Part shown: piece by piece, positions 86-23,998 of the stretch
Layout: every line of letters begins with the position of its first letter
Numbering within the stretch: the stretch's first letter is position 1
Source of the DNA: Pseudomonadota bacterium
GTDB lineage: Bacteria > Bdellovibrionota > Bdellovibrionia > Bdellovibrionales > SG-bin7
Length of the DNA: 64,000 nucleotides
NCBI GenBank assembly: GCA_034439715.1
Contig: JAWXAY010000094.1
Location: 1 to 64,000 of the forward strand
Direction: 5' to 3'
Notes under the pieces: generated by a model
Database searches by the model: none
Told to the model about the DNA's origin: nothing
What the model saw: the letters and a program-made list of their open reading frames with translations, nothing else
Made by a program: the position numbers and the translations under genes

Positions 86-301
86 GTGAACACCACAGTT
101 GCCGATAATGATCCTCAGGCGATAAAGATGGCTTACCACTCCCTATTCGATGCAGTCGTAATCGGCGCTGAAAACGATCATGGAGAAAGATCCATCACCT
201 ATGTTTTAGGTGATGGATCACATGAGGACTATTTTGGTCCAAGGTCAGAAATGGTGGAGGCGGGGGGAATCGAACCCCCGTCCGCGAGAGATCCTGCATA
301 A
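86..301 (+). pseudogene. Possible C-terminal remnant of a site-specific recombinase reading into the tmRNA 3' end
   Basis: ORF ends in MVEAGGIEPPS, the antisense translation of the tmRNA 3' arm. In-frame TAA at 68-70; a different frame is open from the window start to TGA 87-89 (GTGA overlap or frameshift). No catalytic motif visible. Confidence 0.3.
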
Positions 302-608
302 GACGGGCTACATGTTTAGTCTGTAATTTGTTTTTGGCTGCAAGCGCCCACAGACAGGCTATCACAACCAATTTCCTCGGAATATTTAAGTGTTAAAGCC
401 CGAGGAGCGCCGTAACACCTAGACAGCTAAAGTGTCGCTACTTTTGGCCCCGCCATCAATCAGCCAAAGTAACGCAAGCTACCCTTAGGCAGCGAGAGCA
501 ACGTTGTCGTTGCCAGATAAACAGTTGGTAAGTTTTTAACGAGCTCCTCATACCATGCCCGACATGCTTCTCACGATTCACTACCCACGTCGAAACCTTG
601 TCGCCCCC
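252..608 (-). ncRNA. ssrA: tmRNA; resume-frame tag GNDNVALAA* at 514-485
   Basis: 5' GGGGGCGA..., 3' T-arm GGTTCGATTCC and ...CGCCTCCACCA; internal ORF ggc aac gac aac gtt gct ctc gct gcc taa; 357 nt. Confidence 0.97.
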
Positions 609-2693: not shown

Positions 2694-3074
2694 ATGACTA
2701 AATCTATATCCCTATTGGCCTTAACGGGCTTCGTATTTTTGAGTTTATGTGCTGTCGCCCAGGAATCAGTAGAGCCTGAAAGGGTATTCAATACCCTCAC
2801 GCCCGACGACGAGAAATTCCTTGATGAGCTCGATTATATACTGACAGGCGGTCCAATGGGGCGGTTGAAACTCATACAGGCACCACAGTCAGTTAATACT
2901 TTGGTTGCCGCAGGATACTCAGTACAGCAACTCACGTACTTTGAAGCTAAAGAGAAAAATCACAAATGTGTAATTGAGTTAAAATTTGTAGGCCCATCGA
3001 AAAAGAGCATAAATATTTACTACGATGCGTTTACTATAGAAATGAAGAGTCGCTGCAACATCCAGGAGCCTTGA
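2694..3074 (+). CDS. Secreted hypothetical protein
   Basis: AGGAG RBS, signal peptide ending AVA. Confidence 0.7.
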   Translation: MTKSISLLALTGFVFLSLCAVAQESVEPERVFNTLTPDDEKFLDELDYILTGGPMGRLKLIQAPQSVNTLVAAGYSVQQLTYFEAKEKNHKCVIELKFVGPSKKSINIYYDAFTIEMKSRCNIQEP

Positions 3075-3158
3075 CTGTCTTTTGTCTTTTTTGAGTGCCC
3101 AATTTGCGCTCTATTGGGCGTATAAAATAGATGAAATGGAATATAATAGAGTTGGTTT

Positions 3159-3174
3159 TGGCGCCGCTCTTGCT
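3159..3174 (+). promoter_or_regulatory. Sigma54-type -24/-12 promoter
   Basis: TGGCGCCGCTCTTGCT, exact GG-N10-GC spacing. Confidence 0.6.
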
Positions 3175-3184
3175 CTAGTAATCT

Positions 3185-3310
3185 CTGTCGTACGTATGCT
3201 GATTCTGTACGTTTGCTGCAAGGTCTTGGCGATGAGACCCCTCCCCTAGGAGTCAGAAGGGCCTTTAATATGGCTTTTTTAGCTCCAACTCATCGCTGAG
3301 ACTTAGATTT
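3185..3310 (+). ncRNA. Candidate structured small RNA, family unknown
   Basis: 16-bp stem 3221-3236/3289-3304 and 14-of-15-bp stem 3249-3263/3272-3286 with 7 G-U pairs valid only on + strand; downstream of a sigma54 motif; between convergent genes. Confidence 0.6.
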
Positions 3311-3313
3311 TAT

Positions 3314-4255
3314 CTAATTGTTGGTGGTCTTAGTTTCAATCTTCTCGGTCACCGGAAAAAACTGAAGATTCAGCTGATAAATTCGCTCACCTTTGGAATT
3401 CATGCGTTTTGCTTGAACATCCTTACTGATGCGTTTTTTTAACTGACGAATTTCAAATTTAATCTGATTAAACTCTTCTTCTGTCAGAGCTAATGTGGCC
3501 GCGCCAATTTCGCGATCGACCGGATTGTCTTTATAAAGTGATTCTAACCCCAAATAAATCAAATCTGTTTGAAGTTTTCGAATTAACTCAATAGGCACAT
3601 TCTGCGCCGAATCCATCAGCTCGCGGCTCTTTTTAATTTCGCCTGAAATCTCATCGCGCTTTAAAATTCCTGAATCAAAAAGCTGGCGAAGTGATTCTTG
3701 AATTTCCTCAGGTGCGGCGCGATTGCCCAATGCTTGAGTCAATTCGAGTGGGTCAAAATTAACATTAGCTTGATCCACCATGCTGTACAGAGTCCAGACC
3801 AGCCAGGTGGGCATTTTCTCCCAAGTTTTTGCATTGAGTTCTCCACGCTGGATCTTTTTTTGAACCCGCATTGTGTTTAGCTCAATGAAATTCTTGTTCC
3901 TCGTCACGGCATCGCTGGATTGATTGTACATGACTAATAAGACAAACTCTTCAGAGTCGATCTTATTAAACTGTAACGCTTTGGCAAATTTTTGCGCCAT
4001 ATCTACAGAGAGATTGCGCTTGCCTTCAACGATGAGTTTTAAATAATTTGGCGATTTAATATCAGCTGCCGCCGAAAATACAGCGTACGAATAAGGACGT
4101 CTGCCTTCATCCGTTTTTACACGAAAATCGTAGTAGTCTTTTAAATACTTTCGATAGTCTAGGTAGTTGATGAGTATGGGGTGAGTCGCTTCATTCACAT
4201 TTCCGTGGGGAAGACTCAAGGTCACTGTTTGTTTTACCGTATCCATGGTTTGCAT
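3314..4255 (-). CDS. TIGR02147/DUF4423-like protein with N-terminal HTH (start uncertain: 4273, 4255 or 4246)
   Basis: YLDYRKYLKDYY...YSYAVFSAAADIKSPNYLKLIVEGKRNLS and C-terminal IYQLNLQFFP. Confidence 0.85.
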   Translation of the reverse strand: MQTMDTVKQTVTLSLPHGNVNEATHPILINYLDYRKYLKDYYDFRVKTDEGRRPYSYAVFSAAADIKSPNYLKLIVEGKRNLSVDMAQKFAKALQFNKIDSEEFVLLVMYNQSSDAVTRNKNFIELNTMRVQKKIQRGELNAKTWEKMPTWLVWTLYSMVDQANVNFDPLELTQALGNRAAPEEIQESLRQLFDSGILKRDEISGEIKKSRELMDSAQNVPIELIRKLQTDLIYLGLESLYKDNPVDREIGAATLALTEEEFNQIKFEIRQLKKRISKDVQAKRMNSKGERIYQLNLQFFPVTEKIETKTTNN

Positions 4256-4335
4256 AGAAAAAAATGTTCCCACAAAAATTTTTGATCCGTCAAAAACTTT
4301 AAGTAAGAACCTTGCGATGAGTCGTTACATATTTT

Positions 4336-5778
4336 TTAAAGAAGGGACTCGTCTACCCCAAAATTTCTGTTAGGAACAATCGTTATGCGTAGCGCACGAT
4401 TCGATTCTTCCTGCAATCTCAAACTCTTGCTACCAAATGCCTGATTGCCTCGATTATAGGGTTGATTTTGTCGTAACAAACTCTTAGTGGCTTTGTCGTT
4501 CATAATTATGCTGCCATTATCGCCTGGTAATCCGTCACTAAAGCCATGCAGCTGGAGGCTAATCTGCAACATACCTCGACCATTGTTGTGGACTAATATG
4601 GCAGATTTTATAGTTTCATTGATAATGTCGTCGTAACCGTCTTCTTCGCTGTTTTTTTCTAATTTAGTATTTACGCTCACCGCAGCGCCTCGTTTAGTAA
4701 CTTCAAGTTCGCCGCCGACTGTAAATGGAGAATAACCCAAGCGGTTAATATCGAGCTGGAATCCGGCTCGGCCATCGACAACTGCAAATGTTTTTAATTC
4801 AGCAATATTGTTCATTCCTTCAGTCGATCCTACAATGTAACGATAATCCATAACTTGAGCAAAAAACTGAACCCATCGGTCAATAATAACATCGCCCTGG
4901 GGTCTTAACATTAATTTAGATGTGTACTCGCCTAAGTAAAGGTTGGCTGGAGAATTTCTTAATACAATATAAGCTTGAGATTCGTCGTTATTTTTTCTCA
5001 ACTGCACAATGGCCGTCGAACATTTGTCGCGTGAGGATTTAGAGACACAGGTTAGGAAGGCCGACAAAGCTTCCGAATCCTCTGAGGCACTACTATCGAT
5101 TTCCATCTTTTCATTTTTAATGGATTTCTTTTGTTCGACAAGATCGCTAACATCTAATGAGTATATCAATTGGCCGATTTCGGCCACAGACACCTGAAGA
5201 GTGTATTTTTGTTCATGCTGACTTTTTACTAGACTTGCCTTAGAAATTCCGCGAGCGAGTTTTTCGTTTCCGCCTTGAACTGCAGAATTATGGCGTACTT
5301 TGTCGTCGTCGGCTGTCCAGTTATTTATATCAAGGTCTTTCTTCATTTTCTCATCAAATTTACTTTTTTCATCGACAGAAGTTCTGCGAGTACCCAATTT
5401 AATTTTGAGGGCATCCATAATATTGTCATCGCCGGCGTCTGTATAATCTAAAAGTTCTGAGCGGCCATATCCCGTTTTAACTACAACTACGTTAGGGTTC
5501 ACCACGTGAGTGTAGTTTGTGGGGTCGTAAGACACTTGTGTGGCTTTATCTTTCGAAAAAACAATGTCGTCGCCTTTTTTATTGAGATTATTTAGATTAT
5601 TGGGATCATTTTGATTAAGGCCGTTATTGCCATTATTTCCATTATGGCCAGGTGGGTACGGTGTGCGAGGTGACGCTGGTGTTCCGTTGCTATTGTTTCG
5701 GCTACCTTGGCAGCCCGACAATATGATGCCGAGTACAAGTCCCATAACTAAGTTTTTCTTTAAATCCATAATTTTCAT
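4336..5778 (-). CDS. Hypothetical lipoprotein with Asn/Pro-rich N-terminal linker
   Basis: Lipobox ILSGC; 480-aa ORF; GAGG RBS. Confidence 0.75.
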   Translation of the reverse strand: MKIMDLKKNLVMGLVLGIILSGCQGSRNNSNGTPASPRTPYPPGHNGNNGNNGLNQNDPNNLNNLNKKGDDIVFSKDKATQVSYDPTNYTHVVNPNVVVVKTGYGRSELLDYTDAGDDNIMDALKIKLGTRRTSVDEKSKFDEKMKKDLDINNWTADDDKVRHNSAVQGGNEKLARGISKASLVKSQHEQKYTLQVSVAEIGQLIYSLDVSDLVEQKKSIKNEKMEIDSSASEDSEALSAFLTCVSKSSRDKCSTAIVQLRKNNDESQAYIVLRNSPANLYLGEYTSKLMLRPQGDVIIDRWVQFFAQVMDYRYIVGSTEGMNNIAELKTFAVVDGRAGFQLDINRLGYSPFTVGGELEVTKRGAAVSVNTKLEKNSEEDGYDDIINETIKSAILVHNNGRGMLQISLQLHGFSDGLPGDNGSIIMNDKATKSLLRQNQPYNRGNQAFGSKSLRLQEESNRALRITIVPNRNFGVDESLL

Positions 5779-5818
5779 AACAGTTTCCTCATGAAAAATT
5801 TAATCTCAACCATAGGAG

Positions 5819-5834
5819 TGCAAGGGGCAGGCCA
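5819..5834 (-). promoter_or_regulatory. Sigma54-type promoter for the 4336-5778 lipoprotein
   Basis: TGGCCTGCCCCTTGCA on - strand, 40 nt upstream of ATG. Confidence 0.6.
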
Positions 5835-5991
5835 TGTCGCCAATCGTAAATGTCTGAATTGACAAGGGTATTAACCGGGTTTTAGGGGTGTTTGGGGGGC
5901 GAGTGACGGCATTTTCCGTCACTGTGTAAAGCTCGTGGACAGGCGCCGTTGACACCCGTGTTGTAAGGGTCTGCAAGTTGGGGGTACCAGC

Positions 5992-6832: not shown

Positions 6833-6929
6833 TGGCCGGGTCCCATACAATGGCGAGCCTGCTAACCCCGCCAGGTCCGAAAGGAAGCAACGGTACCAGA
6901 ACTCCCATGTGATATGGGGTGCTCGGCCA
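6833..6929 (+). ncRNA. ffs: Bacterial small SRP RNA (4.5S)
   Basis: Helix-8 motif CCGCCAGGTCCGAAAGGAAGCAACGG, closing stem TGGCCGGG/CTCGGCCA, located just upstream of dnaX. Confidence 0.92.
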
Positions 6930-6960
6930 ACCTAAAAGATGTCGGCAATAAAGGGGAAGA

Positions 6961-8948: not shown

Positions 8949-9563
8949 ATGTTAAATGTTCCCTCGATAGACAGTTTAGTTCATGAGTTAAGCCGGCTCC
9001 CTGGCGTCGGGCAAAAATCGGCACAGAGGCTCGCGTATTTTATTTTACGCGCGCCTAAAGGGTTTTCAGAATGTTTGCGGGACGCTTTAAAGGGCGTGGA
9101 AGAAAAAGTTAAAACCTGTCCTAATTGCTATAGTTTTACGGAAGAAAAGATTTGCCACTACTGTAGCGATCCCAAGCGTGATGATTCTTTTTTGTGCGTG
9201 GTTGAGGAGCCCATGGATATACTCCGCGTCGAAAGCTCGGGCGCTTTTCGTGGACGTTACCACGTGCTACAGGGATCGATTTCACCTCTTGATGGTATTT
9301 CTCCTAGTGATTTAAGGATCAATGAGCTTTTGGAGAAGGTAGAACAAAGCCATCAGGATGGTAATCCGGGCGTGCAAGAAGTAATTTTGGCTTTAGATGC
9401 AGATCTTGAGGGCGACACGACTGTGCTTTATTTATCACGCAAGTTAAAAGACAAGGTTATTAAAATCTCTCGTATTGCGCATGGGGTTCCTATTGGGAGC
9501 GATATTGAATATATAGATCATAGAACATTAGGCCGAGCCCTAGAAAATAGGATAGAAATATAA
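8949..9563 (+). CDS. recR: Recombination mediator RecR
   Basis: LPGVGQKSAQRLA, C4 zinc finger, Toprim, RIAHGVPIG. Confidence 0.98.
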   Translation: MLNVPSIDSLVHELSRLPGVGQKSAQRLAYFILRAPKGFSECLRDALKGVEEKVKTCPNCYSFTEEKICHYCSDPKRDDSFLCVVEEPMDILRVESSGAFRGRYHVLQGSISPLDGISPSDLRINELLEKVEQSHQDGNPGVQEVILALDADLEGDTTVLYLSRKLKDKVIKISRIAHGVPIGSDIEYIDHRTLGRALENRIEI

Positions 9564-22483: not shown

Positions 22484-23998
22484 ATGATGAGTAATAATAA
22501 AAAGATGTATGTAGGCTGGCTCTTAGCAGTGCTTCTGAGTTTTTCTTTTGCCCAAGTACAAGGGCAAGAAGCCGGAGATAGCTCAAAGGGAACGGGTAAA
22601 ATTATTTATCTAGACCTCCTAGTGGGCGTTTTGTTCACCAAAGAGCTAAAAGATTTGCCTTCGGGAATCGAATTTAAAGGAGACTTTAAATCAGTGACTA
22701 AGGCTAAATGGGACCCCAATAACGGTATTTTGATTTTAACACCAAACAAAACCGGTGTAGCGACTATGAATATCGTTGATTCCTCAAATAAGATCATTCA
22801 AGAGATTCGTCTAAAGGTTACAGAAAGTAAATTAAGTAGCGTCGCTAAAGAGGTGACATCGTTACTAGGTGGTATTGACGGCATAAGTGTGAAAATCGTA
22901 AATAATAAAGTTATCGTTGATGGTGAGGTTCTGCTGCCCGTTGATATGAACCGAATCAACGCCGTTCTTAAACAATTTCCGGGCCAGGCATCATCAATTG
23001 TTACGATGAGTCCCTTAGCTTTGAAAAAAATGGCAGAAATTATTGAGCGCGAAGTTAATAATCCTGAAATTCACTGTAAAGCGGCCAATGAAAGTTTTAT
23101 TCTTGAAGGCTGGGCGGCAGACAAAAATGAACAGCAACGAGCAGAAATTATCGCGAAAACCTTTGTGCAAGAACAGTTTGTAGGGCCTGATCCGGATGCG
23201 GGAGCGAGATTAAAACTAAATGTGGCCAAGGTTATCAATCTAATAAATATCAAAGAGTCTAAAGCCGCTGAGCCCAGTAAGACAGTGAAGCTTAACGTCC
23301 ACTACGTAGAGCTGCAAAAAGATTACGAGAAAAGTTTTAGATTTCAGTGGATGCCCGATCTTTCCGACGGTACTAAATTAGCATTTGAGTCTGGCGGAGA
23401 TCGCGGACCAGGCGGAATACTAAGTACCATTACGGGCACCATCACTAATTTACTTCCAAAACTGAATTGGGCAAAACAACATGGTTTTGCGCGAGTGCTT
23501 CAAAGCTCCAGCATCATGGTCATGGACGGGCAAAAAGGTGATATACGTTCAACGGTTCGAGTGCCTTACCTGGTGGCTGGGCCGCAGGGCACACAGTCGA
23601 CTAACTTTGAAGAGGCGGGACTGATTACTACAGTTACACCGAAAATTATGGGAGCTCGATCTGACAATGTCAGATTACAAATGGAGTTTGCCGTAAAGAG
23701 CCTACTTAGTTACACTCCCAAGGGCCCGATTGTCTCTAACAATTCGGTTAATACAGTGGTTGTGGTTCGCAGTTCTCAGAGTGCAGCTGTAGGTGGTTTG
23801 GTCACAGCAACGTCTGGTACGAACTTTAATAAATTGCCTCCGGATGTAAGTAAGAACCCTCTTATCTCTCTTTACGCGTCTAAGGACTTTCGTCGCAGTC
23901 AAACCCAATTTGTGGTGTTTGTAACTCCGGTGATTCAGGCCTCAGCCAGTGAAGGCGTAGAGCAAATAAAGGCCCGATTTAAAGTAAGAGATCGCTAG
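22484..23998 (+). CDS. cpaC: Tad secretin RcpA/CpaC with BON-like domains
   Basis: Signal peptide; C-terminal secretin motif QFVVFVTPVI; follows cpaB. Confidence 0.88.
   Translation: MMSNNKKMYVGWLLAVLLSFSFAQVQGQEAGDSSKGTGKIIYLDLLVGVLFTKELKDLPSGIEFKGDFKSVTKAKWDPNNGILILTPNKTGVATMNIVDSSNKIIQEIRLKVTESKLSSVAKEVTSLLGGIDGISVKIVNNKVIVDGEVLLPVDMNRINAVLKQFPGQASSIVTMSPLALKKMAEIIEREVNNPEIHCKAANESFILEGWAADKNEQQRAEIIAKTFVQEQFVGPDPDAGARLKLNVAKVINLINIKESKAAEPSKTVKLNVHYVELQKDYEKSFRFQWMPDLSDGTKLAFESGGDRGPGGILSTITGTITNLLPKLNWAKQHGFARVLQSSSIMVMDGQKGDIRSTVRVPYLVAGPQGTQSTNFEEAGLITTVTPKIMGARSDNVRLQMEFAVKSLLSYTPKGPIVSNNSVNTVVVVRSSQSAAVGGLVTATSGTNFNKLPPDVSKNPLISLYASKDFRRSQTQFVVFVTPVIQASASEGVEQIKARFKVRDR

Follow-up and report, generated by a model that had tools for sequence, protein, structure and literature searches.

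C-rich loops of small RNAs have been proposed, as a general principle, to pair with G-rich ribosome-binding sites (PMC4615179). Among the RNAs closest to the one described here are CJnc190 of Campylobacter jejuni and RepG of Helicobacter pylori, both from hosts without Hfq. According to the available portions of PMC8687705, their unpaired C/U-rich loops pair with G-rich leaders; antisense repression at such sites has been shown for CJnc190 and is reported for RepG, C. jejuni is devoid of Hfq, and CJnc190 is cut by RNase III from a long stem. The cuckoo RNAs of Alphaproteobacteria (RSs0680/CcsR, ar14/NfeR1; RF02344) are composed of two to four short adjacent hairpins, each with CCUCCUCCC, an unpaired motif resembling the anti-Shine-Dalgarno sequence, and occur as several siblings per genome (PMC4615179, PMC10746234; this and the following descriptions of known RNAs follow the accessible portions of the cited papers).

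Pxr of Myxococcus xanthus (RF01812), about 110-125 nt long, is transcribed from a sigma-54 promoter with an upstream enhancer region, carries an essential C in a loop and controls the life cycle of a predatory deltaproteobacterial relative; it folds into three stem-loops and lies next to the upstream two-component genes pxrRK (PMC5684412, PMC5568312, PMC11928866). CsrB and RsmZ act as decoys through a repeated short motif at near-optimal spacing for a protein dimer (PMC3856055). RNA control in predatory bacteria is little known: the one study found describes intergenic attack-phase RNAs of Bdellovibrio bacteriovorus, eight of them without targets, together with merRNA, and assigns three to FliA-driven transcription, growth-phase RNAs being unmapped there (PMC3627812).

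Our analysis concerns a predicted RNA whose place in an intergenic region recalls those of B. bacteriovorus, a member of the same order. We hold it highly probable that it represents a real, uncatalogued small RNA gene, common to many families of predatory Bdellovibrionales. On the features tested, it falls outside the 6S, Pxr, cuckoo, CsrB and ANTAR-target families; by analogy, we lean somewhat towards the view that it acts like the C-rich antisense RNAs, with promoter logic as in Pxr. Because the combination of sigma-54 with a C-rich loop is already known, the design itself comes as a limited surprise. The RNA is of interest because its family spans the order, mostly as a single copy, with promoter, activator-like site and seed all defined, and because the hosts seem to lack Hfq.

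Locus, predicted fold and homologues

The window, that is, the whole analysed stretch of 64,000 nucleotides, carries the tmRNA at 252-608 (- strand) and the SRP RNA at 6834-6931 (+ strand). With ssrA 2.5 kb away and both ffs and dnaX at 3.5 kb, the element lies in a gap of 239 bp (3075-3313) between convergent open reading frames at 2694-3074 (+; 126 amino acids, without family assignment) and 3314-4273 (-; a TIGR02147/DUF4423 gene, the usual but not obligatory neighbour). The length of this gap agrees with that given by an earlier, sequence-only reading, which had proposed an unannotated sigma-54-driven structured small RNA of no recognised family with an unpaired C-rich tract; this proposal is now backed by conservation in a family of homologous sequences.

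From the fold and the family model, an RNA of about 125 nt is predicted at 3185-3312 (+), its 3' end being approximate. Its long rod (3221-3304) consists of a basal helix, 3221-3236/3289-3304, with 16 of 16 pairs (3 G-U) and a variable distal helix, 3249-3263/3272-3286, with 14 of 15 (4 G-U). Between them the C-rich unpaired tract ACCCCUCCCCUA (3237-3248), a probable pairing seed, faces AA in a 12/2 bulge, and in all these details the initial description was accurate. Its claim of strand specificity held as well: positions 3150-3340 give z -2.9 on the + strand versus -0.6 on the - strand, and the + strand of 3184-3315 folds at -46.7 kcal/mol (z -4.5), with none of 200 shuffles equally good.

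Structural conservation had been named beforehand as decisive, and the basal helix does show compensatory changes. In a structure-blind alignment, 9 of 13 pairs have changed on both sides (27 such cells versus 12.3 in shuffles); in a model-fitted alignment, 11 of 11 have (174 versus 48.4). These counts are inflated by relatedness, yet slid controls nonetheless fall well below them. The distal helix varies freely. Matches to 6S or another known family, and dispersed copies of the REP/MITE type, had been put forward as arguments against the RNA; no Rfam family, RF00013 included, matches the element in the window or in 31 further loci, and the element is single-copy in the genome, so a REP or MITE nature was rejected. 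RF02344 gave no match above cut-off for this RNA in the window and the 31 loci, and RF01812 none in the genome or the same 31 loci. No description of the RNA was found in the literature outside subscription papers; by eye, the eight B. bacteriovorus sequences printed in the accessible portions of PMC3627812 include none with tandem repeat, rod and C-run.

Homologues are distributed unevenly through the order. BLAST of relatives yielded just one clear and one weak match, a return so low that synteny and a covariance model were needed to find the family. A first model, built from 18 members found by synteny or BLAST, yields matches at E<=1e-5 in 70 of the 150 genomes searched from the order, as counted from the results table, nearly always in one copy; 13 of the 70 are model seeds. 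Positive genomes belong to families f1 (4/4, this genome included), f2 (19/26), f5 (24/31) and f12 (19/30), with a single one each in f3, f6, f7 and f8 and zero in f4, f9, f10, f11 and f13. With a second model, built from 59 matches, none of 69 f10 genomes has the RNA, and under laxer filters all matches in 24 f10 genomes stay at or below 23 bits. Weak model matches in f10, f9 and other families were rejected as members, being mRNA promoters or a short sibling RNA instead. Strong matches in a sample of the phylum are restricted to the order. A pattern search gave 40 named records, of which 10 score above 59 bits, every one from Bdellovibrionales or a family of that order, and the other 30 reach at most 20.3 bits.

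The counts given below, unless otherwise stated, refer to 80 distinct matches and lean towards the model that selected them. They remain from 85 after visual removal of five, of which three were mRNA promoters that carry the repeat motif, one was an unrelated sequence and one a second copy lacking the C-run.

That there is no RNA gene here, and that the sequence is only a terminator or 3' element of the gene converging on it or folds by chance, is scarcely credible. This reading could appeal to the rod abutting the TIGR02147 stop codon, to the weak U-tail of the + strand here and to four U's near the rod end in 34 of 72 members, but in 73 of 80 members the more favourable fold belongs to the + strand and not the - strand, it is on the + strand that promoter, upstream site and repeat are conserved, and the element moves away from the TIGR02147 gene intact. 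A pattern search found no terminator at the 3' end of this RNA. Nor was a conserved small-peptide reading frame found: in 45 of 75 members the C-run is not preceded by any ATG, and the frames of the others vary in phase and length.

Several single loci may be recorded here. L140 (G050:C49) carries the RNA twice in tandem, at a distance of about 430 bases, and the promoter of the second copy is degenerate. In L127 and L128 (family f3) the RNA is compact, and a further C-run and a terminator-like hairpin come after it. L275-L277, from family f18 of another order of the phylum, may hold an analogue: a long rod behind a sigma-54 promoter, its bulge rich in C and U, with the 5' repeat absent. In L278:1330-1610 (G290) a rod with a C-loop stands at a gene end after repeat-like motifs, without a clear promoter.

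Promoter, upstream site and 5' tandem repeat

The -24/-12 motif that had been noted is present at 3159-3174 (+), with a predicted start near 3185. As a pattern it is weak evidence, with 41 matches in the genome versus 16-38 for shifted spacers; the sigma-54 promoter is credible because it is kept in homologues. GG and TTGCT are invariant in the 18 members found by synteny or BLAST, and 76 of 80 model matches have an intact promoter, a partly circular figure as the model includes it. RpoN and 15 sigma-54 activators are encoded in the genome.

Three features were passed over in the sequence-only reading, namely an upstream activator-like site, a 5' tandem repeat and two sibling RNAs with C-loops. 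The first was found by Gibbs sampling of 69 non-redundant upstream regions (consensus approximately RGYGMCAAWTTnnGKC). With leave-one-out scoring, 50 of the 69 reach at least 10, versus 3 of 69 shuffled regions. The copy of this RNA, at 3094-3109, about 90 bases 5' of the predicted start, scores 15.1; across members the site lies 80-190 bases upstream. It is probably the binding site of a sigma-54 activator. It is also found, with a score of 11.0, at the promoter (5834-5819) of a lipoprotein-like gene at 4336-5834 (-), upstream of the TIGR02147 gene. This gene has no Pfam or NCBIfam match and was called a lipoprotein by eye; the TIGR02147 protein has no solved relative by sequence. The two genes probably form a co-regulated convergent operon. 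A palindrome GTGAC...GTCAC lies upstream of the sigma-54 promoter of this operon (window 5900-5925).

TIGR02147 orthologues occur in 159 of 201 genomes of the order, and a recognisable copy of the element, read partly by eye, stands at 21 of the 30 best TIGR02147 loci; six of the nine loci without it belong to family f10. In 64 of 80 members the RNA and TIGR02147 converge; the other 16 have the RNA elsewhere, and at three of the loci compared with Rfam it adjoins ssrA. It thus behaves as a gene in its own right within the ssrA-ffs region, where the gene content separating it from ssrA changes from genome to genome.

At the 5' end of the predicted RNA, a repeat with consensus GYKGWACGUWDGYUG is found at 3187-3201 and again, 17 nt further, at 3204-3218. 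It is present in 79 of 80 members (two copies in 60, one in 19), more often than the C-run with 75 of 80. Among the 60 members with two copies, the spacing is 17 nt in 50 and 18 nt in 7, and the only high-scoring pair with 17-nt spacing in this genome is that at the RNA. That G, A, G and U never vary in the core follows from the way of scoring. Fixed bases alternate with free ones within the repeats, and no covariation is seen. A short 5' hairpin had been proposed here; its 6 of 6 pairs at 3189-3194/3206-3211 can form, whereas its standing as a conserved structure was rejected, since past the self-complementary ACGU core no pair between repeats beats shuffles. The 5' module gave no notable pairing with 16S rRNA, tmRNA, SRP RNA, 6S RNA or the sibling RNAs. 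This tandem repeat is the part of the RNA that could be new.

Could the repeat be a DNA operator, for instance for the TIGR02147 protein, while the RNA mainly controls the convergent operon in cis, either as an overlapping antisense or through transcriptional collision? The arrangement invites the idea, as the convergent gene lies within 150 bases in 47 of the 64 cases, the end of the RNA touches its stop codon in several members, its product has a weak helix-turn-helix match, and the repeat keeps a narrow distance from the -12 box. We nevertheless judge it quite improbable: 16 of 80 members, some of them on short loci, are not convergent with TIGR02147, f10 has the gene (54/54) without the RNA (0/69), and a cis role leaves the unpaired C-run unexplained. 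A regulon-wide role of the repeat as operator or leader motif was rejected as well, since in this genome it is not enriched after sigma-54 promoters (4 versus 4 in the control) and is scattered in f10.

A more substantial rival, which we still consider unlikely, is that the main job of the RNA is protein binding, the repeat (perhaps with the C-run) serving as decoy for a dimeric RNA-binding protein, either a relaxed CsrA or another one, and the rod as scaffold. It fits with the repeat being the most constant part of the RNA, persisting where the C-run is lost, and with the alternation of its fixed and free bases. The spacing of 17-18 nt is near the 18-nt optimum given for the CsrA dimer in the accessible part of PMC3856055, CsrA is encoded in the genome, and the CsrA of B. 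bacteriovorus is stated, in the accessible part of PMC13443453, to tolerate a change of GGA to GAA. Against it, GGA is absent from the first 45 nt in 39 of 80 members, this RNA included, and occurs once in 27, and by eye the flagellin leaders of this genome have ordinary GGA motifs. The repeat motif is barely enriched at mRNA leaders and is found in only 8 of 30 pilin-like ones. Compared with CsrB and RsmZ as portrayed in PMC3856055, the present RNA has only two copies, lacks GGA in about half of its members and has a separate C-rich module.

Another class of dual-element RNAs can be considered at this point. Targets of ANTAR proteins have two small hairpins and share their genome with an ANTAR protein. 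This identity was rejected, as the genome has no PF03861 match and pairing within the repeats has little support; the missing ANTAR protein speaks against the protein decoy too.

Similar repeats were met elsewhere. L161:1027-1094 (G025) and L283 (G293) carry 17-spaced tandem repeats in leaders of protein genes, with no rod, and a three-copy look-alike on contig C76 was discarded, as it lies in a protein repeat. In L026, set against a Pxr primer printed in the accessible part of PMC5568312, the repeat linker shows an unquantified likeness of 8 bases to the first Pxr stem; L026 has no RF01812 match.

The C-rich tract and its candidate targets

Present in 75 of 80 members, the C-run has a probability of being unpaired above 0.7 in 72 of those 75, and on average reaches 0.92, versus 0.30 for other C's; CCUCC is found in 46 of 80. 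A median of 30 pairs encloses it, and its setting in homologues is a bulge, a multiloop or a terminal loop. Four members combine full promoter and repeat with no C-run. Loci where the C-run is lost or replaced while promoter and 5' repeat are kept are L125 (G030), L274 (G009), L026 (G115), L126 (G042) and L124 (the second copy of G009); two of the members without C-run have a long U/G-rich insert in the rod.

A long rod with an internal unpaired region is reminiscent of 6S RNA, which has a roughly two-sided central bubble inside its rod. That the RNA is a 6S-like decoy of some form of RNA polymerase, for example the sigma-54 holoenzyme, through a rod with open bulge is nonetheless very improbable, even with the many pairs around the C-run and the location near ssrA and ffs. 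The genome has a canonical 6S elsewhere (contig C35, 59.6 bits), the bulge is asymmetric at 12/2, 51 of 75 predicted folds place the C-run in a hairpin loop, and the sibling RNAs have the same C-loops without a rod.

We therefore return to antisense pairing. Slightly favoured in our estimate is a Hfq-independent antisense repressor of G-rich ribosome-binding sites, comparable to CJnc190 and RepG. What the sequences show is conservation, covariation, an unpaired C-run, a common upstream site and skewed ribosome-binding sites; transcription, activator binding, pairing and repression are inferred. An enhancer-binding activator bound about 90 bases upstream would allow sigma-54 polymerase to make the RNA of about 125 nt, whose long rod would stabilise it and keep the C-rich tract unpaired. 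Without Hfq, this tract would pair directly with G-rich ribosome-binding sites (GGGGG, GGGGAGG) and block translation of many mRNAs with modest specificity, probably including secreted-protein mRNAs of the same sigma-54 regulon. The 5' tandem repeat would be a second, separate module. No Hfq was found over cut-off in this genome (95.7% complete) or in five relatives; RNase III, the enzyme that processes CJnc190, is encoded alongside CsrA.

Compared by features with CJnc190 and RepG as presented in PMC8687705, only this RNA has a sigma-54 promoter, a 5' tandem repeat and a C-run often placed in an internal bulge. It differs from Pxr, as far as the cited portions describe it, in its one rod, its unrelated neighbours and the taxonomic order of its hosts, and from the cuckoo RNAs in having one C-run and one long rod.

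Candidate targets were examined one by one. Exact 12-mer complements of the bulge region occur in the genome only at one ribosome-binding site, that of a secreted DUF4360 gene on contig C20, where the best match extends to 13 nt. As a specific target this gene was rejected, as 59 of 1236 random flanks reach the same match length (p about 0.05). Its homologues in two relatives are without the extended match; all four DUF4360-like genes in this genome have G-run sites. A 10-nt match at fliA is not kept in orthologues, nor is the extended match of a gene on contig C29, and both were dismissed, though many fliA leaders are G-rich by eye. Most leaders of pilA, among them those of one f10 genome, are also G-rich by eye, which is indistinguishable from strong use of Shine-Dalgarno sequences, and pilA was set aside too. 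Only 2 of the 46 strongest duplexes involve sigma-54-preceded genes, and G-run sites also precede housekeeping genes. Non-conserved matches, a match length reached by about 5% of random flanks, G-runs at housekeeping genes and members without C-run together lead us to expect broad and weak targeting.

Sibling RNAs and the sigma-54 regulon

Two further intergenic sigma-54 loci with exposed C-loops were found in this genome, on contigs C60 and C67. The former (- strand, promoter at 9464; L162, with homologues L166-L195) encodes a predicted RNA of about 55 nt with one C-loop hairpin and a U-tail, beside an amidase gene, and is widespread in the order. The latter (+ strand, 23621-23730; L163) has a U-tail and a pair of hairpins whose loops are both C-rich; it alone bears a weak likeness to ar14 (RF02344), at 35.1 bits, below the cut-off of 58.8.

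Both loci share promoter context with the RNA described above. Among intergenic C-run sites, 4 of 53 have a strong upstream promoter, versus 0.4% of random intergenic positions; two of the four share one locus and one is this RNA. For the upstream site, the three C-loop loci have scores of 15.1, 13.2 and 13.7, and 23 of 390 control regions reach at least 10. The site is found at 24 of 28 C60-type loci, which are related to each other, versus 13 of 60 sigma-54 promoters. The pattern of promoter and nearby C-run occurs in 74 of 201 genomes (about a dozen matches in the reversed control), among them 24 of 26 genomes of genus g31 of family f10, mostly as the C60-type RNA.

A sigma-54 promoter precedes 72 leading genes, versus 3 and 8 with shifted spacers. 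By a rough rule, 28 of 48 sigma-54-preceded genes (stricter cut-off) code for signal-peptide-like proteins, versus 489 of 1760. G-run ribosome-binding sites are found at 24 of the 72 leading genes and at 215 of 1688 others, and the ratio of G-run to GGAGG is 24:4 versus 215:144 (p=0.008), with start codons taken from a rough gene caller that favours Shine-Dalgarno-like starts. Such G-run sites are readable by the normal 16S anti-Shine-Dalgarno sequence, and therefore no small RNA is needed to explain them. Besides the sequence on C82 that resembles a 16S rRNA 3' end, a divergent second one stands near position 4121 of contig C23.

The family suggests a circuit under sigma-54 to which three sibling RNAs belong. 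Under the antisense reading, the three C-loop RNAs would dampen a sigma-54 programme or set its timing. A bolder version, which we regard as speculative and rather unlikely, is that one activator drives all three C-loop RNAs together with secreted-protein genes that have G-run sites as a shared address, while the 17-nt repeat titrates an RNA-binding protein of new specificity and couples sequestration to anti-Shine-Dalgarno silencing; the RNA would then be central to a so far unrecognised level of post-transcriptional control in the predatory life cycle. One of the siblings is conserved in a family rich in closed genomes, which probably holds cultured strains, and so the circuit may be testable there.
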